From Escherichia phage vB_EcoM-ZQ3: DNA of 64,000 nucleotides. This document shows positions 3,064 through 64,000 of this stretch, piece by piece. Under the pieces are notes generated by a model. It worked only from the letters and a program-made list of their open reading frames with translations. It ran no database searches and was not told the origin of the DNA. A program made the translations under genes and the position numbers. Location: the sequence record MW630116.1. The stretch is one strand, 5' to 3'. The stretch's first letter is position 1, and the number at the start of each line of letters is the position of its first letter.

Positions 3064-3480
3064 ATGTTTACTACTGCTAAAGGTTTCACTGCTGCTGATC
3101 TGAAAGTTACTTCTATCCGTACTGACGCTAACCCACATAACCATAATCGTGTTCGTAAAGCATGGGTCCTGCATTGTGATGACGTAAGTGCTAAAAAACT
3201 CCAATCTTTGCCACAAGAAACTCGTTTTATGATTTATGGTTTTATTGATAACGATGTATCTGATATGTGGATTCATCTGATGCGTAAGCACTATAAAGAT
3301 TCTATTGAAGCCGGCGGAAAAATCGTTCTTGATAAAGATGGTTCTGAGCGTCTGGAAGATTTCTACTGTGTTGATGCCGACGAACAGCTAATTGCAGCTG
3401 GCGAAATTGTTGCTTCTAAAATTCCAGAATATATTGAATCACTGCCTGAAGCTATTAAAAAGCAAATGGTTGCTGCATAA
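3064..3480 (+). CDS. hypothetical early protein at the position occupied by rpbA in T4
   Basis: 138-aa ORF with RBS agagag; highly-expressed-type codon usage; synteny only. Confidence 0.65.
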   Translation: MFTTAKGFTAADLKVTSIRTDANPHNHNRVRKAWVLHCDDVSAKKLQSLPQETRFMIYGFIDNDVSDMWIHLMRKHYKDSIEAGGKIVLDKDGSERLEDFYCVDADEQLIAAGEIVASKIPEYIESLPEAIKKQMVAA

Positions 3481-3522
3481 TAAATTTGTTATAAACTTTG
3501 AATTGTCTTGAAAGGAAATAAA

Positions 3523-4209
3523 ATGAAACTGTCTAAAGATACTATCGCTATTCTGAAAAACTTTGCCTCTATTAACTCCGGCATTCTGCTGAGTCAAGGT
3601 AAATTTATTATGACTCGTGCAGTTAATGGCACCACTTATGCGGAAGCAAATATCTCTGATGAAATTGATTTTGACGTAGCACTTTATGATTTGAATAGCT
3701 TCTTAAGCATTTTGAGTCTAGTGTCTGATGATGCCGAAATTTCAATGCACACCGATGGCAATATTAAAATTGCAGATACACGTTCCACGGTTTATTGGCC
3801 TGCCGCTGACAAGAGCACCATTGTTTTTCCTAATAAGCCAATTCAATTCCCAGTGGCTTCTGTGATTACTGAAATTAAAGCCGAAGACCTTCAACAATTG
3901 CTTCGAGTTTCACGTGGTCTTCAGATTGATACAATTGCTATTACAAATAAAGATGGTAAAATTGTTATCAATGGCTATAATAAAGTTGAAGATTCTGGAC
4001 TAACCCGTCCTAAGTATTCTTTGACTCTTACCGATTATGACGGTTCTAACAATTTTAACTTCGTAATCAATATGGCTAATATGAAAATCCAGCCAGGTAA
4101 CTATAAAGTAATGTTGTGGGGAGCTGGTGATAAAGTTGCAGCCAAGTTTGAAAGCCCTCAAGTAAGTTATGTTATTGCGATGGAAGCCGATTCTACTCAC
4201 GACTTCTAA
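3523..4209 (+). CDS. 45: sliding clamp gp45
   Basis: 228 aa from ATG 3523 (RBS aaaggaa); N-terminus MKLSKDT... matches recalled T4 gp45. Confidence 0.93.
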   Translation: MKLSKDTIAILKNFASINSGILLSQGKFIMTRAVNGTTYAEANISDEIDFDVALYDLNSFLSILSLVSDDAEISMHTDGNIKIADTRSTVYWPAADKSTIVFPNKPIQFPVASVITEIKAEDLQQLLRVSRGLQIDTIAITNKDGKIVINGYNKVEDSGLTRPKYSLTLTDYDGSNNFNFVINMANMKIQPGNYKVMLWGAGDKVAAKFESPQVSYVIAMEADSTHDF

Positions 4210-4212
4210 GTC

Positions 4213-4239
4213 AAAGCTTTACGTTTAATGTAGTACTAT
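4213..4239 (+). promoter_or_regulatory. putative MotA-dependent middle promoter upstream of gene 44, followed by a GGAGGA-gaaa-TCCTCC hairpin (4243-4258)
   Basis: aaaGCTTTA box, 12-nt gap, tactat -10. Confidence 0.4.
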
Positions 4240-4284
4240 TATGGAGGAGAAATCCTCCAGTTTAATGATAATGAGGAAAATTAC

Positions 4285-5247
4285 ATGATTACTATCAATT
4301 CCAAAGAACACATTCTAGAACAGAAATATCGTCCTTCTTCCATTGACGAATGTATTCTGCCTGCGTATGACCATGAAACATTCAAGTCTTTAGTATCTAA
4401 AGGAAAACTTCCTCATATTATTTTGCACTCTCCTTCTCCTGGCACAGGTAAAACAACAGTAGCAAAAGCATTATGTAATGATATCAATGCCGAAATGATG
4501 TTTGTCAACGGTTCTGATTGTAAGATTGATTTTGTGCGTGGTCCGTTAACCGCATTCGCTCGTTCAGTCTCAATGGAAGGCAAGCCTAAAGTTATTGTTA
4601 TTGATGAATTTGACCGTAGTGGCCTCGCCGAATCACAACGTCACCTTCGTACGTTTATGGAAGAATTCTCTAGTAACTGCTCTATTGTTATTACTGCTAA
4701 CAACATCGATGGAATTATTGAACCATTACGTAGTCGTTGTCGAGTTATCGAATTCGGACGTCCAACCGAAGAAGATAAAATCTCGATGATGAAGAAAATG
4801 ATTCATCGTATGGTTGAAATCTGTAAGAACGAAAATATCGAAATCGCTGATATGAAAGTTGTTGCAGCTCTTGTTAAAAAGAACTTCCCGGACTTTCGTC
4901 GCACAATCGGTCAATTAGACCAGTACTCGTCTAAAGGTGTTCTTGATGCGGGTATTTTGTCTATCGTAACTAATGACCGTGGCACAGTCTCTGATGTTAT
5001 CGAAGCAATGAAGAACAAAGATATCAAACAGCTTCGTGCATTAGCTCCAAAATATGCCGCAGATTATTCATGGTTCATCGATAAATTAGTTTCAGAATGT
5101 TATGACCAAGTTGCACCTGGTAAAAGTATTATTTCGCTTTATGAAATTGCAGGCGAAAACAATAAGTTTCATGGATTAGCAAGTAATATTGAATTACATG
5201 TTATGTATATGCTTCTTCAACTGACCTGCGAACTGACTTGGAAATAA
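4285..5247 (+). CDS. 44: clamp loader large subunit gp44 (AAA+)
   Basis: 320 aa; Walker A GTGKTT, Walker [12 protein letters not shown] motif. Confidence 0.95.
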
Positions 5248-5248
5248 T

Positions 5249-5812
5249 ATGAACTTATTCGATGATGACGTCCAGCTTAACGAGCACCAAATTGCATGGA
5301 AGTCTAATGACGCTGATGCGATTCAAAAATGTGCTGATATGTTTAAAGAAAAACCTGAGAATGAATTCTTTAAAATCATTAATGCTATTAATGAAAAGAA
5401 ATCTATGTCAATTGCTCAGGTTGACTACTCAAAATTTATGGTTGAGAACTCATTATCCCAGTTCCCAGAATGTATGCCAGCTGTTTACATGATGAACTTA
5501 GTCGGTTCTGAATTAAGTGATGAAGCGCACTTCAACTATATGATGGCGGCAATTCCGCGTGGTCGTCGATTCTCTAAATGGGCTAAACTAGTCGAAGACA
5601 CTTCAGAGTTACTAGTTATCAAACTGTTGATGAAACATTACACAATCAACATGAATGATGCTACCGAGTATAAGCGGCTCCTTGAAAAAAATAACAAGTT
5701 GCCAATAGTCCTTAAAGAACTGAAGGCCATGGTCACTGATGAGTTTCTCAAAGAAGTTACAAAAAATGTGAAAGAACAAAAACAATTTAAAAAATTAGCA
5801 TTGGAATGGTAA
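5249..5812 (+). CDS. 62: clamp loader small subunit gp62
   Basis: 187 aa, same size as T4 gp62, directly after gene 44. Confidence 0.88.
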
Positions 5813-5814
5813 AA

Positions 5815-6183
5815 ATGATTGAAATTAAATTGAAGAACCCTGAAGATTTTCTAAAAGTCAAAGAGACTTTGACCCGTATGGGCATCGCTAATAACAAGGA
5901 TAAAGTCCTTTACCAGTCTTGTCATATCCTCCAAAAGCAAGGTAAGTACTATATCGTCCACTTTAAAGAAATGCTGCGTATGGACGGACGTCAGGTTGAT
6001 ATTGATGGTGAAGACTATCAGCGACGTGATTCGATTGCTCAGTTGCTTGAAGACTGGGGATTGATTGTTATTGAAGACTCTGCTCGTGAAGATCTGTTTG
6101 GCCTGACTAATAACTTCCGTGTTATCTCTTTTAAACAGAAAGATGACTGGACTTTGAAAGCAAAATATACAATTGGTAATTAA
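5815..6183 (+). CDS. regA: translational repressor RegA
   Basis: 122 aa from ATG 5815 (MIEIKLK...), matches recalled T4 RegA; TAA/ATG adjacency with gene 62. Confidence 0.88.
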   Translation: MIEIKLKNPEDFLKVKETLTRMGIANNKDKVLYQSCHILQKQGKYYIVHFKEMLRMDGRQVDIDGEDYQRRDSIAQLLEDWGLIVIEDSAREDLFGLTNNFRVISFKQKDDWTLKAKYTIGN

Positions 6184-6235
6184 AGCAATGGGACTTCGGT
6201 CCCATTTGGAGTATAATAAGTTCATCAACAAACAA

Positions 6236-6264
6236 AAGACAATAACTCGTCTAAAGGAAATTAA
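6236..6264 (+). promoter_or_regulatory. putative gp43 translational operator (small hairpin with AAUAACUC loop plus SD)
   Basis: gac-aataactc-gtc then aagga SD before the gene 43 ATG; resembles the recalled T4/RB69 gene 43 operator. Confidence 0.4.
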
Positions 6265-8976
6265 ATGAAAGAATTTTACTTAACGGTTGAACAGATTGGT
6301 GATTCAATTTTTGAACGTTACATCGATTCTAACGGCCGTGAACGTACTCGTGAAGTAGAATATAAACCATCACTGTTTGCTCATTGTCCAGAAAGTCAGG
6401 CTACGAAATATTTCGATATCTACGGTAAGCCGTGTACTCGTAAGTTGTTCGCCAATATGCGTGATGCCTCACAATGGATTAAACGCATGGAAGATATCGG
6501 ACTTGAAGCACTTGGCATGGACGATTTCAAATTGGCGTATTTGTCTGACACTTATAACTATGAAATCAAATACGACCATACAAAAATTCGTGTGGCTAAC
6601 TTCGACATCGAAGTAACATCTCCAGATGGGTTCCCTGAGCCGTCACAAGCAAAACATCCGATTGATGCTATCACCCATTATGACTCAATTGATGACAGGT
6701 TTTATGTATTTGACCTTTTGAATTCTCCATATGGTAATGTAGAAGAATGGTCTATTGAAATCGCTGCTAAGCTTCAAGAACAAGGCGGTGATGAAGTTCC
6801 ATCCGAAATTATCGACAAAATCATTTATATGCCGTTCGATAACGAAAAAGAATTGTTGATGGAATATCTCAACTTCTGGCAACAGAAAACTCCTGTCATT
6901 TTGACTGGATGGAACGTTGAGTCATTTGATATTCCATATGTGTATAACCGAATCAAGAATATTTTTGGCGAATCTACTGCGAAACGTTTATCACCACATC
7001 GCAAAACTCGTGTTAAAGTTATCGAAAACATGTATGGTTCTCGTGAAATCATTACATTGTTCGGTATCTCTGTTCTTGATTACATTGATCTTTACAAAAA
7101 ATTCTCTTTTACCAATCAACCGTCGTATTCTCTGGATTACATTTCAGAATTTGAATTGAACGTTGGTAAACTGAAATATGACGGCCCTATTTCTAAGCTT
7201 CGTGAAAGCAATCACCAACGATATATTTCTTATAACATTATCGACGTATATCGTGTATTGCAAATTGATGCTAAGCGTCAGTTCATCAACTTGAGTTTGG
7301 ACATGGGTTATTATGCTAAAATTCAGATTCAATCTGTGTTTAGCCCAATTAAAACATGGGATGCTATTATTTTTAATAGCCTTAAAGAGCAGAACAAGGT
7401 GATTCCACAAGGTCGTTCTCACCCGGTTCAACCTTATCCAGGCGCTTTTGTTAAGGAACCTATTCCAAATCGATACAAATATGTAATGAGTTTCGACCTT
7501 ACATCCCTGTATCCAAGTATTATTCGCCAAGTGAATATTAGCCCAGAAACAATAGCAGGAACGTTTAAAGTAGCTCCATTGCATGATTATATTAACGCTG
7601 TTGCTGAACGTCCTTCTGATGTGTACAGTTGTTCTCCTAACGGCATGATGTATTATAAAGACCGTGATGGTGTAGTTCCAACTGAAATCACTAAGGTCTT
7701 TAATCAACGTAAAGAACATAAAGGTTACATGCTTGCAGCTCAACGTAATGGTGAAATAATTAAAGAGGCATTGCATAATCCTAATCTTTCTGTTGACGAA
7801 CCATTAGATGTTGATTATCGTTTCGACTTCAGTGATGAGATTAAAGAAAAGATTAAAAAGTTGTCTGCTAAATCTCTTAATGAAATGTTGTTTAGAGCTC
7901 AACGTACTGAAGTTGCAGGTATGACTGCCCAAATTAACCGTAAATTGCTTATCAACTCACTTTATGGTGCACTTGGCAACGTTTGGTTCCGTTATTATGA
8001 TTTGCGTAATGCTACTGCAATCACAACATTTGGTCAAATGGCTTTACAGTGGATTGAACGTAAAGTTAATGAATATCTGAATGAAGTTTGTGGCACAGAA
8101 GGTGAAGCTTTCGTTCTTTATGGTGATACAGACTCTATTTACGTATCTGCTGATAAAATTATCGATAAGGTTGGTGAATCTAAATTCCGTGATACCAACC
8201 ATTGGGTAGACTTCTTAGATAAGTTTGCACGTGAACGTATGGAACCAGCTATTGATAGAGGTTTCCGTGAAATGTGTGAATACATGAACAATAAACAACA
8301 CTTAATGTTCATGGACCGAGAAGCTATCGCTGGGCCTCCACTCGGTTCTAAAGGTATTGGTGGATTCTGGACTGGTAAGAAACGTTATGCATTAAACGTG
8401 TGGGATATGGAAGGTACTCGTTACGCTGAGCCTAAACTCAAAATCATGGGTCTAGAGACTCAGAAATCTTCGACTCCTAAAGCAGTACAGAAAGCTCTTA
8501 AAGAATGTATTCGTCGTATGCTTCAAGAAGGTGAAGAATCATTACAAGAATATTTTAAAGAGTTTGAAAAAGAATTCCGTCAATTGAATTATATTAGCAT
8601 CGCGTCGGTATCTTCTGCGAATAACATTGCTAAATATGATGTAGGTGGATTCCCTGGTCCCAAATGCCCGTTCCATATTCGTGGAATTCTGACGTATAAC
8701 CGTGCTATCAAAGGTAATATCGATGCACCGCAAGTTGTAGAAGGTGAAAAAGTATATGTTCTGCCTTTACGTGAAGGAAACCCATTCGGTGATAAATGTA
8801 TCGCATGGCCTTCTGGTACTGAAATCACAGATTTAATTAAAGACGATGTACTTCACTGGATGGACTACACTGTTCTCCTTGAGAAGACATTTATTAAACC
8901 ACTTGAAGGATTCACATCAGCAGCGAAACTCGATTATGAGAAGAAAGCATCTCTGTTCGATATGTTCGATTTTTGA
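6265..8976 (+). CDS. 43: DNA polymerase gp43 (family B, with 3-prime to 5-prime exonuclease)
   Basis: 903 aa; exo motifs FDIE/YNIIDVY, pol motifs SLYPS, KILLNSLYG-like, YGDTDS; sequence matches my recollection of RB69 gp43. Confidence 0.97.
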   Translation: MKEFYLTVEQIGDSIFERYIDSNGRERTREVEYKPSLFAHCPESQATKYFDIYGKPCTRKLFANMRDASQWIKRMEDIGLEALGMDDFKLAYLSDTYNYEIKYDHTKIRVANFDIEVTSPDGFPEPSQAKHPIDAITHYDSIDDRFYVFDLLNSPYGNVEEWSIEIAAKLQEQGGDEVPSEIIDKIIYMPFDNEKELLMEYLNFWQQKTPVILTGWNVESFDIPYVYNRIKNIFGESTAKRLSPHRKTRVKVIENMYGSREIITLFGISVLDYIDLYKKFSFTNQPSYSLDYISEFELNVGKLKYDGPISKLRESNHQRYISYNIIDVYRVLQIDAKRQFINLSLDMGYYAKIQIQSVFSPIKTWDAIIFNSLKEQNKVIPQGRSHPVQPYPGAFVKEPIPNRYKYVMSFDLTSLYPSIIRQVNISPETIAGTFKVAPLHDYINAVAERPSDVYSCSPNGMMYYKDRDGVVPTEITKVFNQRKEHKGYMLAAQRNGEIIKEALHNPNLSVDEPLDVDYRFDFSDEIKEKIKKLSAKSLNEMLFRAQRTEVAGMTAQINRKLLINSLYGALGNVWFRYYDLRNATAITTFGQMALQWIERKVNEYLNEVCGTEGEAFVLYGDTDSIYVSADKIIDKVGESKFRDTNHWVDFLDKFARERMEPAIDRGFREMCEYMNNKQHLMFMDREAIAGPPLGSKGIGGFWTGKKRYALNVWDMEGTRYAEPKLKIMGLETQKSSTPKAVQKALKECIRRMLQEGEESLQEYFKEFEKEFRQLNYISIASVSSANNIAKYDVGGFPGPKCPFHIRGILTYNRAIKGNIDAPQVVEGEKVYVLPLREGNPFGDKCIAWPSGTEITDLIKDDVLHWMDYTVLLEKTFIKPLEGFTSAAKLDYEKKASLFDMFDF

Positions 8977-9016
8977 TATAATGTCATGGACGGTAAACTA
9001 ATTAAATGAGAGAAAT

Positions 9017-9652
9017 ATGAAAACTACTCCTATTACTATCGCTATTGACGCAATCATAAAACAAGCTTCTTCTTTGGCCGCTATGGCCAAAGTAATTAGT
9101 CAAAACCCTGCTCGTTATAATGCTATTCTAGAAACTCTTCGACGCCCAGGACTTAGTAATTATGAAAGCCGAGTAATTATTACAGGTGTTGGTAAGAATG
9201 CTAATATTGCAACTAAAGCTTCTGAGACATTTGCTTCACTCGGTATCCCGAGTATGTACTTGAACACTGGGCATTATTCTCACGGTGATGCAGGATTCAT
9301 TGCGCCTAATGATGTGTTGATTCATATTAGTCGTTCTGGTAAAACTGAAGAAATGATAGGCGTGGCTAAGCATCTTAAAATGATTCGTCCGAACGTCAAA
9401 CAGATTCTGTTGCATTGTAACCCGGACATTCCACAAGAATACGAAGCTCTTTTTGATTATACGTTCTGTACAGGCATCGCAGTAGAGGTTGATGAGAATT
9501 CTCTGGCTCCGACCATGTCCACTACATTGTTGTTAGCGCTTATCGATACGTTTGCTATCAACCTTTCGTCTGAACGTGGATTTACCTCTAATGACTTCCT
9601 TAAGTTCCACCCTGGCGGTGCACTAGGTGCCATGTTACGAGGCGAACAATGA
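9017..9652 (+). CDS. SIS-domain sugar-phosphate isomerase, KdsD/GutQ-like D-arabinose-5-phosphate isomerase (no CBS domains)
   Basis: VGKNANIATKASETFASLGIPS...HGD...ISRSGKT and LAPTMSTT...FHPGGALG closely parallel the KdsD SIS core, including conserved Lys and His. Confidence 0.8.
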   Translation: MKTTPITIAIDAIIKQASSLAAMAKVISQNPARYNAILETLRRPGLSNYESRVIITGVGKNANIATKASETFASLGIPSMYLNTGHYSHGDAGFIAPNDVLIHISRSGKTEEMIGVAKHLKMIRPNVKQILLHCNPDIPQEYEALFDYTFCTGIAVEVDENSLAPTMSTTLLLALIDTFAINLSSERGFTSNDFLKFHPGGALGAMLRGEQ

Positions 9653-9833: not shown

Positions 9834-11522
9834 ATGAAAAAAGCTGTTATTCTTGGTGCTGGACTGGCAACTCGTTTGTATCCAATAACGCATCATATTC
9901 CTAAGGTGCTTGTTAACTATAAACAAGACACTATTCTGAGCAATTTGTATACAATTTATTCTGACCTTGGCGCAGACGAAATTATTGTAGTAGTTCATTC
10001 AAAATTTGCTGAAACTGTTCGAGCTTATTGTGAGCAAGAAGGGTTCAATGTGACTATTCGTACAGTTGATGAAGCGTATGGTTCTGCTTATGCTCTTGCT
10101 AAATTACACAAAGATTTAAACGGCCATAATGTAATTGTTAACTGGTGTGATATTATTCCTGATTTTGGTTCGTGGTCTTGGAATGTTAACGCAATCTATG
10201 TTAAGGGTGACGAATGTCGATATAATTTCGACGGTGAAAATATCACTAATGTAGGTTCAACAGGTGGTAATGTTGTAGGAATTTATCAGTTCAAAGACTG
10301 GGAATTCTATATGGGTTCTACTGATGAGGAAATTCATGAATACTGCAAAGGACGTGATTTCGTAGAATTCCTTTACGGCAGCGCATTCAATAAATCAGAG
10401 CTTATGAATATCATCGACCTTGGTGATATGCCTAAACTTGAAAAAGCTCATGAAGTTCGTGAACTTAATCGTAGTTTTAATGCAGTTGAAATTGGCGAAG
10501 AAACGGTAACAAAGATTGCTTTAACAGAACAGGGCGTTGCACTTCAAAAAGATGAAGTCAATTGGTATAAGAAAGTTAAATCAGATTCAGTTCCACGGAT
10601 TGTAAGTTATCATCCTGGCGGCCACTTTATTATGGAACGTATTAAAGGTAAGCCGGCATTTGAATATATTAAATCCAAATCAAGTCTTGCTCGTCCACAA
10701 ATTGTTGATGCAATTTTAGATGCACTGAAATTCAGCACAGACACTTATTTTGTAAGTCCTGAAACTGTTCGTCGTGATTTCACTAAAGAGTTCTATACGA
10801 AAGTTATTGATCGTTGTGAAAGTATTCAACCATTGATTGATTCATTTGGTAAAATCACACATGTGAACTACACTAAGATTGGGCGTCTGAAGCCAATGCT
10901 GAAACAAGCTTTAGAACACCTTATTCGTTATCATAACCGTTCTCAGGGACAGTACTCTGTTATTCATGGTGACCCGAACTTCAGTAATACTATGATTACT
11001 GATAATGGTGAAGTCAAGTTTATCGACCCTCGTGGATATTTTGGTGAAACCAAGATTTATGGGCCAAAATTGTATGATGAAGCTAAAGTGCTTTATGCTG
11101 TTTCAGGTTATGATGAATTCAACGCTAATCCGACTTGGGGACAGTTTACTATTGATGAAACAACTTGTAATGTGACTATTAACATCAATCCGTTAGTTTA
11201 CAAATATGGAAAGATGAGTTCGTTTAACGAGTATCATCATTTGGCAGTGGCAATTATCTGGATTGCATTGGGTGGTTATTTCAAGAATAATCCACTTAAA
11301 GCGGTAGCCGCATATTATAAAGGTATGGAACTTCTGACTAAGCAATTACGTAACATGGGCCGTGTACTTCAGGACGGCTCTATTAGTTATGACGTAGCAG
11401 AACCTGTAACGGCTACTCTGATTACAAAAAATCCTGGTAAATGGGTACTAACTGATAAAGAAACTGGTGTTTCTTATCGTCCAATCGGTGGCGATATCAC
11501 TCATCAATGGGAACGAATCTAA
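9834..11522 (+). CDS. bifunctional sugar kinase / sugar-1-phosphate nucleotidyltransferase
   Basis: N-terminus AVILGAGLATRLYPIT (RmlA/GlmU-type NTase motif); C-terminal HGDPNFSNTMIT and KFIDPRG (APH/choline-kinase-like Brenner motif). Confidence 0.8.
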   Translation: MKKAVILGAGLATRLYPITHHIPKVLVNYKQDTILSNLYTIYSDLGADEIIVVVHSKFAETVRAYCEQEGFNVTIRTVDEAYGSAYALAKLHKDLNGHNVIVNWCDIIPDFGSWSWNVNAIYVKGDECRYNFDGENITNVGSTGGNVVGIYQFKDWEFYMGSTDEEIHEYCKGRDFVEFLYGSAFNKSELMNIIDLGDMPKLEKAHEVRELNRSFNAVEIGEETVTKIALTEQGVALQKDEVNWYKKVKSDSVPRIVSYHPGGHFIMERIKGKPAFEYIKSKSSLARPQIVDAILDALKFSTDTYFVSPETVRRDFTKEFYTKVIDRCESIQPLIDSFGKITHVNYTKIGRLKPMLKQALEHLIRYHNRSQGQYSVIHGDPNFSNTMITDNGEVKFIDPRGYFGETKIYGPKLYDEAKVLYAVSGYDEFNANPTWGQFTIDETTCNVTININPLVYKYGKMSSFNEYHHLAVAIIWIALGGYFKNNPLKAVAAYYKGMELLTKQLRNMGRVLQDGSISYDVAEPVTATLITKNPGKWVLTDKETGVSYRPIGGDITHQWERI

Positions 11523-20034: not shown

Positions 20035-20328
20035 ATGAAAAAGTTATCATTGGCAGCAATCTTACTTGCAGTATCATGTGCACCGGCTCCAGTTACAGCA
20101 GGTTATGATAAAGACCTATGTGAGTGGTCAATGACTGCAAATCAAGAAGATGTTGAACAACAAATCTTCTCTGATATCATGAACATCACTAAACGAGACC
20201 GTCCTAATATGGTTAATAAAGTTGTTGAACAACTTAAGTCTGGTGGTATCATGCAGTACAATTATGTTTTGTATTGTGACCCTAATTTCGATAACAAAGA
20301 TATCGTAACCGAAATCACAGGTGAATAA
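20035..20328 (+). CDS. sp: Spackle (periplasmic superinfection-exclusion protein, lysozyme inhibitor)
   Basis: 97 aa with signal peptide; GYDKDLCEWSMTA...QYNYVLYCD matches recalled T4 Sp. Confidence 0.88.
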   Translation: MKKLSLAAILLAVSCAPAPVTAGYDKDLCEWSMTANQEDVEQQIFSDIMNITKRDRPNMVNKVVEQLKSGGIMQYNYVLYCDPNFDNKDIVTEITGE

Positions 20329-20329
20329 T

Positions 20330-20980
20330 ATGATTTATTATATGCACAAAAATGCGCCATTTAAATATGGTAAATTTCCTAATGCACAATGTTATAATAT
20401 AACGCCGAATGAAAATAATAACGGATACCATATTGGTGTAATTTTTGTAATTGTTAAAGATAACGAAATCGTTGCCTGGGCAGATTTTAAAGGTACAACA
20501 TATGATGTTAATCCGGTGCCTTTCACATATTACAATATAATGGATTTGGCATATGATTATAATTGGTTTAATCATGACGCGTTGGCTCATATTGAAGGTG
20601 TAGGATTTGACATCTCATATTCTAGCTATTCATTATGCCCTATGAGCCGAGCTCACGGTAAAGATGCATCATATCTTTCATTTCGGAAACGTGTAAACTT
20701 CAAACGTAGTACAGAGTATGTCGGTGGACTCTTTGTTAAAGATAATAAAATAACCCGTATTAGTTATCCTTTAAGTGTAGGTCAAAAAGATGTTGTTGTT
20801 GATTTAGACTTAACCGAAAATAACATTAATCATATTGCTTCTGTATATTTTGATATTGATGAAAAAATTGTAGTGTGTGGATACGAATTACCGCCTGAAG
20901 AAAAGGCTGAAACAATTGAAGTCGAATTAGAAATTTCTGTTGATGACCAAATATTTAATGCATTTATGAATCGAGGTTAA
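20330..20980 (+). CDS. hypothetical protein in a low-GC segment
   Basis: 216 aa from ATG 20330; AT-rich coding sequence. Confidence 0.6.
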   Translation: MIYYMHKNAPFKYGKFPNAQCYNITPNENNNGYHIGVIFVIVKDNEIVAWADFKGTTYDVNPVPFTYYNIMDLAYDYNWFNHDALAHIEGVGFDISYSSYSLCPMSRAHGKDASYLSFRKRVNFKRSTEYVGGLFVKDNKITRISYPLSVGQKDVVVDLDLTENNINHIASVYFDIDEKIVVCGYELPPEEKAETIEVELEISVDDQIFNAFMNRG

Positions 20981-60779: not shown

Positions 60780-61359
60780 ATTAGTATTCGCATGTGCTCC
60801 GACTAAAACAGTTGATGATAAGCTGGAATATGCTTTTGGATTAGGTGATGGACTTCCATGGAAGCATATCAAACAAGATATGAGTAACTTTGTTGCTCGC
60901 ACTAAAAACACTGTAATGGTTATGGGTGCTAAGACTTTTGCATCATTACCTCGTCTACTACCAGATCGCACTCATGTGGTTGTCACTGATATGGCCAGAA
61001 AACTGCCTAGGACTAAAACCAACGAACTTGCACGGTTCTATATCACCCAATCTGAATTTATTACCTTGGTAACAGGTGGTGAAATTAACCTGTTTAGACC
61101 TGCAACTGACGTACCGTTTAAACTTTCTACTGAACATGTTAATGTCTCGGTTATTGGTGGTCCTGCTTTATTAAAACAAGCACTGCCTTATGCCGATGAA
61201 ATCGTGATGACTAAAATCATTAAGAAATGTCGTGTTAATTCCGATGTTCAACTTGATAAAGATTTCGTCCAAGATATTATGCTTCAACGTTCTATGGTAG
61301 AATCTCATTACTACAGAATCGATGAACTCACCGAAATTACTGAGAGCGTTTATAAATGA
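60772..61359 (+). CDS. frd: dihydrofolate reductase
   Basis: 195 aa from ATG 60772; FGLGDGLPW and VMGAKTF motifs match recalled T4 Frd. Confidence 0.88.
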   Translation: MLKLVFACAPTKTVDDKLEYAFGLGDGLPWKHIKQDMSNFVARTKNTVMVMGAKTFASLPRLLPDRTHVVVTDMARKLPRTKTNELARFYITQSEFITLVTGGEINLFRPATDVPFKLSTEHVNVSVIGGPALLKQALPYADEIVMTKIIKKCRVNSDVQLDKDFVQDIMLQRSMVESHYYRIDELTEITESVYK

Positions 61360-62216
61360 AACAATACCAATACCTAATTAAAGATATCTTAGAAAATGGC
61401 TACGAAACAGACGACCGTACAGGTACCGGCACTATTGCCCTGTTCGGAACTAAATTACGTTGGGATCTGACTAAAGGATTCCCTGCGGTAACAACTAAGA
61501 AATTAGCATGGAAAGCTTGTATTGCCGAGTTACTGTGGTTCATGTCCGGTTCTACTAATGTTAACGAATTACGTCTTCGTACCCATGGTAGTCTAATTGA
61601 AGGTAAAACTATTTGGGACGATAATTACGAAAATCAGGCAAAAGACCTTGGGTACCATAGCGGTGAACTTGGTCCTATATATGGTAAACAATGGCGTGAT
61701 TTCGGCGGTGTAGACCAATTAGTTGAAACAATCGACCGTATTAAAAAATTACCAACTGATCGTCGTCAAATTGTTTCTGCCTGGAATCCAGCTGAAATAA
61801 ATCAAATGGCACTTCCTCCTTGCCATATGTTCTACCAGTTCAATGTGCGTAATGGTCATCTTGATTTACAATGGTATCAACGCAGTGTAGATGTTTTCTT
61901 GGGCCTGCCGTTCAACATTGCCTCGTACGCTGCCTTGACGCATATTGTAGCGAAGATGTGTAACCTTATCCCAGGTGATTTAGTGTTCTCAGGCGGCAAC
62001 ACGCATATCTACAGCAATCATGTAGAACAATGCAAAGAAGTTCTTCGTCGTGAACCTAAAGAGTTGTGTGAATTAGTTATTAACGGATTACCATACAAAT
62101 TTAGACATCTATCAACCGAAGAACAAATCGAATATGTATTAAAACTTCGTCCTAAAGACTTTATTCTTAAAAATTACGAATCACATCCAGCTATCAAAGC
62201 TAAAATGGCGGTATAA
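61356..62216 (+). CDS. td: thymidylate synthase, uninterrupted
   Basis: 286 aa continuous ORF; PPCHMFYQF active-site motif; ATGA overlap with frd. Confidence 0.93.
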   Translation: MKQYQYLIKDILENGYETDDRTGTGTIALFGTKLRWDLTKGFPAVTTKKLAWKACIAELLWFMSGSTNVNELRLRTHGSLIEGKTIWDDNYENQAKDLGYHSGELGPIYGKQWRDFGGVDQLVETIDRIKKLPTDRRQIVSAWNPAEINQMALPPCHMFYQFNVRNGHLDLQWYQRSVDVFLGLPFNIASYAALTHIVAKMCNLIPGDLVFSGGNTHIYSNHVEQCKEVLRREPKELCELVINGLPYKFRHLSTEEQIEYVLKLRPKDFILKNYESHPAIKAKMAV

Positions 62217-62559: not shown

Positions 62560-63984
62560 ATGCAAGTAACTAAGAGCAGTGGTGTATCCCAAAATTTTGA
62601 TGCACAGAAAATTATTCAAGTCTTAACTTGGCAATGTGAAGGAACACAAATTGACCCATATGAATTGTACGAAGAAATTAAGACCCATCTTGTTGACGGG
62701 ATGAGCACCAAAGATATCCAGAAGATTTGTATTAAAGTTGCAGCTAACTCGATTTCTGTCGAAGAACCTGATTATCAGTATGTCGCCGCCAAAGGGCTAA
62801 TGTTTGCACTCCGTAAAGATGTATACGGACAGTTTGAACCGCCTGCTTTTATCGACCATATTTCTTATTGTGTTAATGAAGGCAAATACGACCCTGAGCT
62901 GTTGTCTCAATATTCAGCAGAAGAAATCATTTATCTCGATTCACAGATTAAACATGAACGAGACTTTGACCTGACTTATGCTGGTGCTATGCAGCTTAAA
63001 GAAAAATATCTAGTTAAAGATAAAACAACTGGGAAGATTTATGAAACTCCACAGTTTGCTATCATGGCTATTGGTATGGCCTTACATCAAGACGAAACTC
63101 ATGACCGTTTGAAACATATTATTCGTTTTTATGATGCCGTTTCTACTCATCAAGTTTCATTGCCTACCCCAATTATGGCAGGTGCTCGTACTCCGACTCG
63201 CCAGTTCTCTAGTTGTGTAGTTATTGAAGCAGGTGATTCGTTAAAATCTATTAACAAAACTTCAGCATCAATTATTGAATATATTTCTAAACGAGCTGGT
63301 ATCGGTATCAACGTTGGTATGCTTCGTGCAGAAGGTTCTAAGATTGGTATGGGTGAAGTTCGACATACAGGTGTTATTCCATTCTGGAAACATTTCCAAA
63401 CTGCAGTAAAATCTTGTTCTCAAGGTGGTATTCGCGGTGGTGCTGCTACAGCGTATTATCCGATGTGGCACTTAGAAGTAGAGAACCTATTAGTTCTGAA
63501 AAATAACAAAGGTGTGGATGAAAACCGTATTCGACATATGGACTACGGAATTCAGATTAATGACCTTATGATGGAACGCCTTGGTAAAAATGATTATATT
63601 ACTTTATTTAGCCCTCACGAAATGTCAGGCGAACTATACTACTCGTTCTTTGAAGATCAAGATAAATTCCGTGAGCTTTATGAGAAAGCTGAAAAAGACC
63701 CGGCAATCAGAAAGAAAAGAATCAAAGCACTAGAACTCTTTGAATTGTTCATGACTGAACGTTCTGGCACTGCTCGAATTTATCCACAGTTTGTTGATAA
63801 CACGAATAACTACACTCCATTTATTCGTGAAAAAGCTCCAATTCGTCAGAGTAACTTATGTTGTGAAATCGCTATTCCAACTAATGATGTGAATAGCCAA
63901 CAAACCCGTTTAATCAAAATTAAGAAGTCGGATGTAGCTAAGTTTTATGAAGCTAATCCTGGCGGTATAATTCAAAGCAAATAA
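62560..63984 (+). CDS. nrdA: ribonucleotide reductase large subunit NrdA, N-terminal 474 codons; frame stops shortly after the catalytic NLCCEI motif
   Basis: ATP-cone N-terminus; NLCCEI active-site motif about 34 codons before the stop; a full class Ia alpha subunit is about 750 aa. Confidence 0.8.
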   Translation: MQVTKSSGVSQNFDAQKIIQVLTWQCEGTQIDPYELYEEIKTHLVDGMSTKDIQKICIKVAANSISVEEPDYQYVAAKGLMFALRKDVYGQFEPPAFIDHISYCVNEGKYDPELLSQYSAEEIIYLDSQIKHERDFDLTYAGAMQLKEKYLVKDKTTGKIYETPQFAIMAIGMALHQDETHDRLKHIIRFYDAVSTHQVSLPTPIMAGARTPTRQFSSCVVIEAGDSLKSINKTSASIIEYISKRAGIGINVGMLRAEGSKIGMGEVRHTGVIPFWKHFQTAVKSCSQGGIRGGAATAYYPMWHLEVENLLVLKNNKGVDENRIRHMDYGIQINDLMMERLGKNDYITLFSPHEMSGELYYSFFEDQDKFRELYEKAEKDPAIRKKRIKALELFELFMTERSGTARIYPQFVDNTNNYTPFIREKAPIRQSNLCCEIAIPTNDVNSQQTRLIKIKKSDVAKFYEANPGGIIQSK

Positions 63985-64000
63985 AGTACACAGACCGTTA

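Follow-up and report, generated by a model that had tools for sequence, protein, structure and literature searches.

The nearest described relative of the locus reported here is the "genes-in-pieces" arrangement of Aeromonas phage Aeh1, in which nrdA, which encodes the class Ia ribonucleotide reductase (RNR) large subunit, is divided into nrdA-a and nrdA-b with the endonuclease gene mobE between them (Friedrich et al., 2007, ref. 8 in PMC3045599; Crona et al., 2011, PMC3045599). The element works without splicing (PMC3045599; PMC3653736). The Aeh1 split enzyme is fully active, and deletion of the tails lowers its activity about 2000-fold (PMC3045599). NrdA-a's C-terminal tail has a pI of 10.4, the N-terminal head of NrdA-b has a pI of 3.8, and mass spectrometry showed that these extensions remain on the mature proteins (PMC3045599). 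They had no match in the databases (Crona et al., 2010, PMC3045599). Aeh1 was still cited as the single case in a 2013 survey and in a 2023 paper, and coliphage cases were mentioned as an unpublished observation in a 2022 preprint. This kind of element is already known, then, and its occurrences in coliphages have been noticed but not analyzed in the literature that we searched. Here we consider a stretch of 64,000 nucleotides from Escherichia phage vB_EcoM-ZQ3 (MW630116.1), which we will term the window. We are confident that the window breaks off within a cassette of the Aeh1 type, in which a free-standing HNH homing endonuclease gene of the MobE type has been inserted in nrdA, and that the two halves of nrdA are translated separately.

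The last gene of the window, according to the list of open reading frames (ORFs) and their translations, is nrdA-a, the N-terminal gene of the split large subunit (62560..63984, on the + strand, as are the other features of this locus). It begins with ATG and encodes 474 amino acids, of which the last 29 are foreign to NrdA. Upstream of it are frd, a td gene (61356-62216) that has no intron, and an nrdA.2-like ORF. This order of genes is that of T-even phages, and hundreds of T4-like coliphages match the DNA of the window. From 62560 to 63894, nrdA-a is 98.4% identical in nucleotides to the uninterrupted nrdA of phage PhAPEC2 (L003). By Pfam, the protein has an ATP-cone and the RNR all-alpha domain, but no more than positions 1-221 of the RNR barrel domain, which has 523.

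The junction itself is sharp. The match to T-even NrdA ends at codon 445 (…NLCCEIAIPTNDVN, 63894), and 29 foreign codons and a TAA stop (63982..63984) follow. In a codon-level alignment with the 752-aa NrdA of PhAPEC2, neither DNA nor protein has any homology past 63894, and when the last 1 kb of the window was searched by megablast, the matches of about 200 insert-less phage records stopped at window positions 63893-63898 (query position 894-899). We place the left (5') junction of the cassette at 63894..63895, with 63894 as the last base derived from nrdA and 63895 as the first base of the cassette. In the numbering of E. coli NrdA, the break comes after N453, in the loop that joins the strand with C439/E441 to the strand with C462, and C462 and the C-terminal rest of the protein are left to a second gene. 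Just ahead of the break are the active-site motif NLCCEI (residues 432-437, 63853..63870), which contains the equivalents of E. coli N437, C439, and E441, and, by its position in the translation, NDVN (residues 442-445, 63883..63894). Further upstream, the cysteine of an FSSC motif (Cys219, 63205..63216) is presumably the counterpart of E. coli Cys225 and of Cys219 in Aeh1 NrdA-a, as judged from PMC3045599 and from a 60.6% identical alignment in which the residue-level match is our reading. Cys225 belongs to a redox-active pair, and the partner of Cys219 (the Cys462 equivalent) is presumably encoded in nrdA-b, outside the window.

A preliminary description of the window, prepared without database searches, had noted that nrdA terminates early, and this is real. 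It counted about 34 codons after NLCCEI, which should be 37 (8 conserved and 29 foreign). It also noted, correctly, that the window stops short of what would settle the matter; indeed, only 16 nt follow the stop. These (63985..64000) are the first 16 of a 45-nt spacer and are 100% identical to positions 5106-5121 of the record for phage PTE-Eco05 (L001).

The 29 foreign residues form a C-terminal tail (SQQTRLIKIKKSDVAKFYEANPGGIIQSK, 63895..63981) that is encoded by the cassette and has a net charge of +4 and a pI of 10.0. Its conserved core (LIKIKKSDVAKF, 63910..63945) is kept in relatives. Matches to the final 121 nt of the window, at 97.5-100% identity, occur in 34 phage records, which come down to 27 distinct phages when GenBank/RefSeq duplicates are left out. 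We checked six of these relatives ORF by ORF: PTE-Eco05, which is 100% identical to the window over the 121 nt, e11/2 (L002), HY01 (L009, record NC_027349), Manna, BYEP01 (L011), and F2 (L012; the last four are L009-L012). All six have the same amino acids throughout the tail, with only synonymous differences in nucleotides. In each of them, nrdA-a with this tail is followed by a spacer of 45 nt (48 nt in BYEP01), an intact ORF of 236 aa, and an ORF of 329 aa (nrdA-b) that begins 11 nt before the 236-aa ORF ends. The 236-aa protein has Pfam HNH and I-HmuI NUMOD-like domains and belongs to PHROG 655 (homing endonuclease). NrdA-b starts with MNIDYEFVDEFYEDDEYTTIKVIENK and goes on as NrdA residues 449-752. 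Its 26-aa head is acidic (net charge −7, pI 4.05). The GenBank annotation of e11/2 already names the three genes NrdA, MobE, and NrdA.

The three parts of the cassette (the tail, the endonuclease, and the head region of nrdA-b) were recovered from the same 34 accessions and are always together. (When the NrdA-b head was used as a tblastn query, the low-complexity filter masked its acidic first 17 residues, so that the search gave no discrimination past the 34 records already known.) Of the three options in the preliminary description, a homing-endonuclease insertion that splits nrdA is the right one, and it is supported by what lies directly downstream in 34 of 34 tail-sharing relatives, namely an HNH gene and nrdA-b. 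We infer by analogy with these relatives that the genome in the window continues in the same way, with the start-codon hairpin of the endonuclease gene, the 236-aa HNH gene, and nrdA-b all beyond the window's end.

These comparisons also dispose of a frameshift or an error in sequencing or assembly, which the preliminary description had listed as another option. Beyond the premature stop itself, nothing points to an error. The insertion amounts to 928 nt by BLAST (5016-5943 in PTE-Eco05) in place of 24 nt of the intact gene, it is shared, at 97.5-100% identity, by 34 records that were sequenced independently, from 27 phages, and no other reading frame continues NrdA. The rest of the protein does not reappear in frame once an error is assumed. 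We give this explanation practically no credence.

The cassette resembles that of Aeh1 (L005). The order of the genes is the same, their sizes are nearly so, and both insertions are in the loop that links the Cys439/Glu441 strand to the Cys462 strand. In the relatives of the window versus Aeh1, NrdA-a has 474 vs. 473 aa, the spacer has 45 vs. 46 nt, the endonuclease has 236 vs. 237 aa, the endonuclease gene overlaps nrdA-b by 11 vs. 14 nt, and NrdA-b has 329 vs. 323 aa. The proteins are 60.6% (NrdA-a) and 52.7% (NrdA-b) identical, and the endonucleases are 45% identical over 227 aa (E = 1e-57). When Aeh1 MobE is compared to 50,697 phage records, its closest full-length relatives are exactly the 34 records described above (44.5-47.6% identity), and the next ones, at about 31%, lie beside a helicase gene. 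The cassette endonuclease and Aeh1 MobE are mutually closest among full-length proteins in this collection, and on these comparisons we consider them to be orthologs.

The extensions are conserved as well. The NrdA-a tails of the coliphages and of Aeh1 have L[IF]K[IV]KKS[DE]V[AD]KF in common, nine residues past a conserved Pro-Thr in each, and the NrdA-b heads have YED[DE]EYTT[IV] in common, eleven residues ahead of LCTL in each. In a shuffle test of the homology to Aeh1, the observed score was reached in 3 of 20,000 shuffles for the tail and in none of 20,000 for the head. Judging from these alignments, the coliphage tail and head are homologous to those of Aeh1, which is more than an analogy.

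Another option in the preliminary description was an intron, here a group I intron with a homing-endonuclease ORF. This would not be out of place: T-even phages carry introns in neighboring genes of nucleotide metabolism, and relatives with the cassette have introns in td and nrdB. But when Rfam was run on positions 3600-9300 of PTE-Eco05, Intron_gpI was found only in nrdB (8371-8611, E = 6e-6, 33.9 bits), and RF00028 had no match at E ≤ 1 in the nrdA insert (5016-5967). Also, the upstream frame stays open for 29 conserved codons before it stops, the downstream half begins with an ATG of its own, and no splicing takes place in the Aeh1 homolog (PMC3045599; PMC3653736). Nor would excision give back nrdA, because 24 nt of the exon are lost and the adjoining 39 nt or so are recoded. 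We regard an intron as highly improbable.

It is also very unlikely that the tail and the head are the N- and C-terminal fragments of a split intein, whether as a relic or as a functional one that might trans-splice the halves. An origin of this type was raised by Crona et al. for Aeh1 (PMC3045599), and the coliphage tail does start with Ser. Furthermore, true split inteins do cut nrdA at the nearby catalytic Cys in uncultivated viral contigs (L030 and L035-L040), and another contig (L032) is split in the same loop. However, Pfam finds only RNR domains, and no Hint or intein domain, in NrdA-a and NrdA-b. The coliphage and Aeh1 tails match no intein or Hint profile at E ≤ 10, whereas the nrdA halves of L030 do match; for peptides of just 29 and 26 aa, this test has low power. 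At its end, the head has ...ENK/R followed by Gly, not in His-Asn followed by Cys, Ser, or Thr, and in Aeh1 the mature proteins keep their tails (PMC3045599). The tails may be the last remnant of a split intein, which is an idea without positive support.

A more serious alternative, though still an unlikely one, is that the insertion inactivated nrdA. The two ORFs would be a pair of pseudogenes, the tails would be meaningless read-through, and the phage would rely on the NrdAB of its host and/or on the anaerobic NrdD. T4 nrdA is non-essential in standard laboratory hosts, so a loss of function could be tolerated for a while. Also, split versions are the minority (34 of 248 nrdA-matching records), and the RefSeq annotation of HY01 includes neither piece. 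Against inactivation, every ORF of the cassette locus is intact in 6 of 6 genomes checked, and both pieces of nrdA are detectable in 34 of 34 records. Among split alleles of one background, the nrdA-a core had a dN/dS of 0.00-0.02 and the nrdA-b core one of 0.03-0.11 (at pS of about 0.14-0.28); for the endonuclease gene it was mostly 0.06-0.26. By this measure, the split nrdA genes appear to be under strong purifying selection, which argues against pseudogenization. The tail and the head have been kept since the divergence from Aeh1, at the same spacing to the active-site motifs, despite about 55% divergence of the endonuclease. Finally, the homologous split enzyme of Aeh1 has full activity and depends on its tails (PMC3045599).

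Several points weigh against our interpretation of the window as the left part of an active Aeh1-type cassette. First, the endonuclease gene and nrdA-b lie outside the window, and no contig on record encodes exactly the NrdA-a of the window. Second, pEK20, which matches the window best over 20 kb (96.4%), does not have the insert. Third, much of the synonymous divergence behind the dN/dS values may predate the insertion or may stem from recombination with intact alleles, so these values do not strictly isolate selection after the split. Fourth, T4 nrdA is dispensable in laboratory hosts, as mentioned above, so the phage could put up with a loss of function for some time. Fifth, it is the Aeh1 enzyme that has been characterized biochemically, while the coliphage version is known from sequence alone.

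The distribution of the cassette bears on how it moves. The cassette (about 950 nt) is 99.35% identical between nrdA backgrounds whose cores share only 78-80%, and its borders are sharp (near 5000 and 5960-6000 in PTE-Eco05). Within one endonuclease variant, pS is at most 0.06 inside the cassette versus 0.14-0.7 in the flanks. Because near-identical cassettes lie in diverged nrdA backgrounds, we conclude that the cassette has spread recently across pre-existing nrdA alleles, as homing predicts. Part of the mobile unit is a recoded form of the 12 or so codons that come first after the split (GEVGLCTLSAFV), with 11 of 39 nt different from the intact allele and nearly all of the differences synonymous. 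By analogy with the "HomR" of the mobA cassette, the recoded codons are plausibly an altered target that protects carriers. The MobE cut on the intact allele is expected near GGTCCTGATGCTGAAATTGGTTTATGCACTCTTTCTGC.

Putting these features together, we propose that the element of about 950 nt adds 29 codons and a stop to the upstream half of its target, giving nrdA-a, and brings along a 45-nt spacer, with a hairpin over the start codon of the endonuclease gene, and then that gene. It would provide the downstream half with a new start codon and 26 acidic codons, giving nrdA-b, and would carry its own recoded copy of the next 12 or so nrdA codons. The halves would then assemble non-covalently with NrdB to form an active (NrdA-a/NrdA-b)2 NrdB2 enzyme. 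By analogy with the Aeh1 biochemistry, the oppositely charged tails would serve as assembly domains, with neither RNA nor protein splicing. The endonuclease presumably cuts the insert-less nrdA of co-infecting phages, and repair would copy the whole cassette, tails included, with homing and the target site as our reading of the comparisons above. We go one step further and think it rather probable, if well short of certain, that the tail and the head are a portable protein-complementation module borne by the endonuclease, or in other words an "antidote" that travels with a selfish element and can restore nrdA alleles that differ by about 20% in their DNA.

Expression of the endonuclease may be held down by RNA structure. 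In the coliphage cassette, a 13-bp hairpin covers the AUG of the endonuclease gene (dG −19.2, z = −2.6), and in Aeh1 a 13-bp hairpin covers the Shine-Dalgarno sequence of mobE (dG −27.1, z = −3.6). These hairpins at the endonuclease start agree with the published repression of Aeh1 mobE by RNA structure (PMC2988022; PMC3045599, Fig. 5 legend). In BYEP01, the extra 3 nt of the spacer (TAA) are in an AT-run just upstream of the hairpin. A scan of the locus for sigma-70 promoters and terminators gave nothing better than shuffled sequences did. The AT-run of the spacer holds AATAAATA, which agrees at 7 of 8 positions with the T4 late-promoter octamer TATAAATA. A late transcript from this position would start inside the 5' arm of the hairpin and would lose that arm, but such a match is too weak in AT-rich DNA for us to claim a promoter.

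Within the 34 records, two further points deserve mention. First, HY01 and F2 have a patch of about 200 nt that is only 64-74% identical to the other cassettes, inside an element that is otherwise about 99% identical. The patch is about 550-750 nt into the cassette alignment, in the middle of the endonuclease gene, and it alters the linker/NUMOD region (89-93% protein identity). This pattern suggests recombination between endonuclease variants. Second, the RefSeq record of HY01 annotates the endonuclease but neither piece of nrdA, yet the ORFs for both pieces are intact (1272-2705 and 3451-4440). We attribute this gap in the annotation to the split, which explains a recurrent problem: these genomes are given either two "ribonucleotide reductase alpha" coding sequences or none.

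Split nrdA genes of this type are a minority in larger collections as well. In a collection of 5.8 billion proteins, we found only two clusters of split NrdA-a (P0002 and P0003; 477 aa, 75 members) versus thousands of full-length proteins; the search with NrdA-a was swamped by full-length NrdAs. In IMG/VR, a profile of the split-type MobE found 80 loci, and only in Aeh1 was the gene inside nrdA. The other loci had either T4-type intergenic layouts or intein-type splits at a different site. When the head motif YED[DE]EYTT was turned into a degenerate DNA pattern and IMG/VR was scanned with it, the only matches were Aeh1 and two chance ones in unrelated proteins.

The genes near nrdA vary in their own load of mobile elements. 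In the window, td is uninterrupted (286 aa), and Rfam found no family at gathering score across the whole window. In PTE-Eco05, e11/2, Manna, and BYEP01, which have the identical nrdA cassette, td is split by an intervening sequence, with a homing-endonuclease gene in it in the first three, and nrdB has an intron and an endonuclease too. The mobile-element loads of neighboring loci vary independently.

Two other regions of the window are worth recording. Just downstream of a 903-aa ORF (6265-8976, presumed to be DNA polymerase) are genes for a SIS-domain protein (9017-9649) and a 562-aa nucleotidyltransferase (9834-11519), which resemble the sugar-nucleotide genes that, in RB69-type phages, are linked to arabinosyl-hydroxymethylcytosine. 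At 20321-20977, a 219-aa ORF has a full-length match to the Pfam family AdfA (anti-DarT factor A, E = 9e-120), an anti-defense gene.

If the nrdA cassette is as we describe, a selfish endonuclease can occupy the active-site region of an enzyme without killing the enzyme and without an intron or an intein. Aeh1 has been the only experimentally studied case of this. We find the same element, with homologous tails, in about 27 T-even phages whose hosts are E. coli, Shigella, Yersinia, and Salmonella, where it moves between nrdA alleles. Comparison gives useful, if not surprising, evidence that the tails belong, as conserved parts, to a cassette that is mobile at present. If they are indeed a portable module, then the tails are not a one-off adaptation of Aeh1, and the hypothesis of Crona et al. 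comes within reach of T-even and E. coli genetics.

How does this cassette relate to the other endonuclease elements of these phages? The name MobE is also used for the T4-type protein (PMC2790892, PMC2988022), which shares the HNH N-terminal domain (46% identity over residues 1-133) and is found in the same RNR operon neighborhood. However, T4 mobE sits between nrdA and nrdB and overlaps the stop of nrdA (UAAUGA); it splits no gene and adds no tails. Its protein does not align beyond residue 133, and its reported target is nrdB (PMC2988022). We considered whether the element could be an intergenic MobE of this type and ruled this out, as the element is inside nrdA.

A second comparison is to the "fractured genes" (Dassa et al., 2009, PMC2677866), in which nrdA is also cut in two close to its active site and the pieces have an endonuclease gene between them. 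In contrast to our cassette, which has no intein signature, these have recognizable N- and C-intein domains and an HN|C junction, and they presumably trans-splice. The uncultivated viral contigs mentioned above are of this sort: in L030 (3-2998) and L035-L040, a split intein cuts nrdA at the catalytic Cys (…SNLC|CVTG…, …ILVHN|CEI…), there is a free-standing ORF between the halves, and a MobE-like gene follows nrdA. Pfam's Intein_splicing model matches the two nrdA halves of L030 at 2e-9 and 2e-4. L032 (401-2941) is different. There, an unrelated 241-aa ORF (GIY-YIG-like by eye, with no Pfam hit) splits nrdA in the same C439-C462 loop; the N-terminal half has a tail of about 40 aa that by eye looks like the end of an N-intein, and the C-terminal half has an 18-aa head without the HN junction. 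L032 may be a degenerate split intein on the way to the "tails" solution.

Third, the mobA cassette of T4 (genes 39 and 60; bioRxiv 10.1101/2022.08.31.505936, PMC3045599 discussion) is similar in strategy. A related Mob-family HNH endonuclease lies inside an essential enzyme gene, the halves of the topoisomerase large subunit are given C- and N-terminal extensions and reassemble, and a short stretch of the target is swapped for the element's own homologous version. The target gene is another one, however, and the mobA cassette includes a 50-nt translational bypass element, with nothing comparable seen in the nrdA cassette.

Finally, the cassette differs from its closest counterpart, that of Aeh1, in several ways. 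Aeh1 is of the Cinqassovirus lineage, while the cassette described here belongs to enterobacterial T-even phages (Tequatrovirus and phages with Mosigvirus-type nrdA). Between the two, the tail core is about 45-50% identical and the nrdA cores are 53-61% identical, and the hairpin lies on the Shine-Dalgarno sequence in Aeh1 but on the AUG in the coliphages. Aeh1 is the only Aeromonas-phage record with the element, whereas the coliphage cassette is found in many genomes and in two nrdA backgrounds, which is direct evidence that it spread recently. This distribution supports the tails being part of the mobile unit, and the T-even coliphages offer a far more tractable experimental system.

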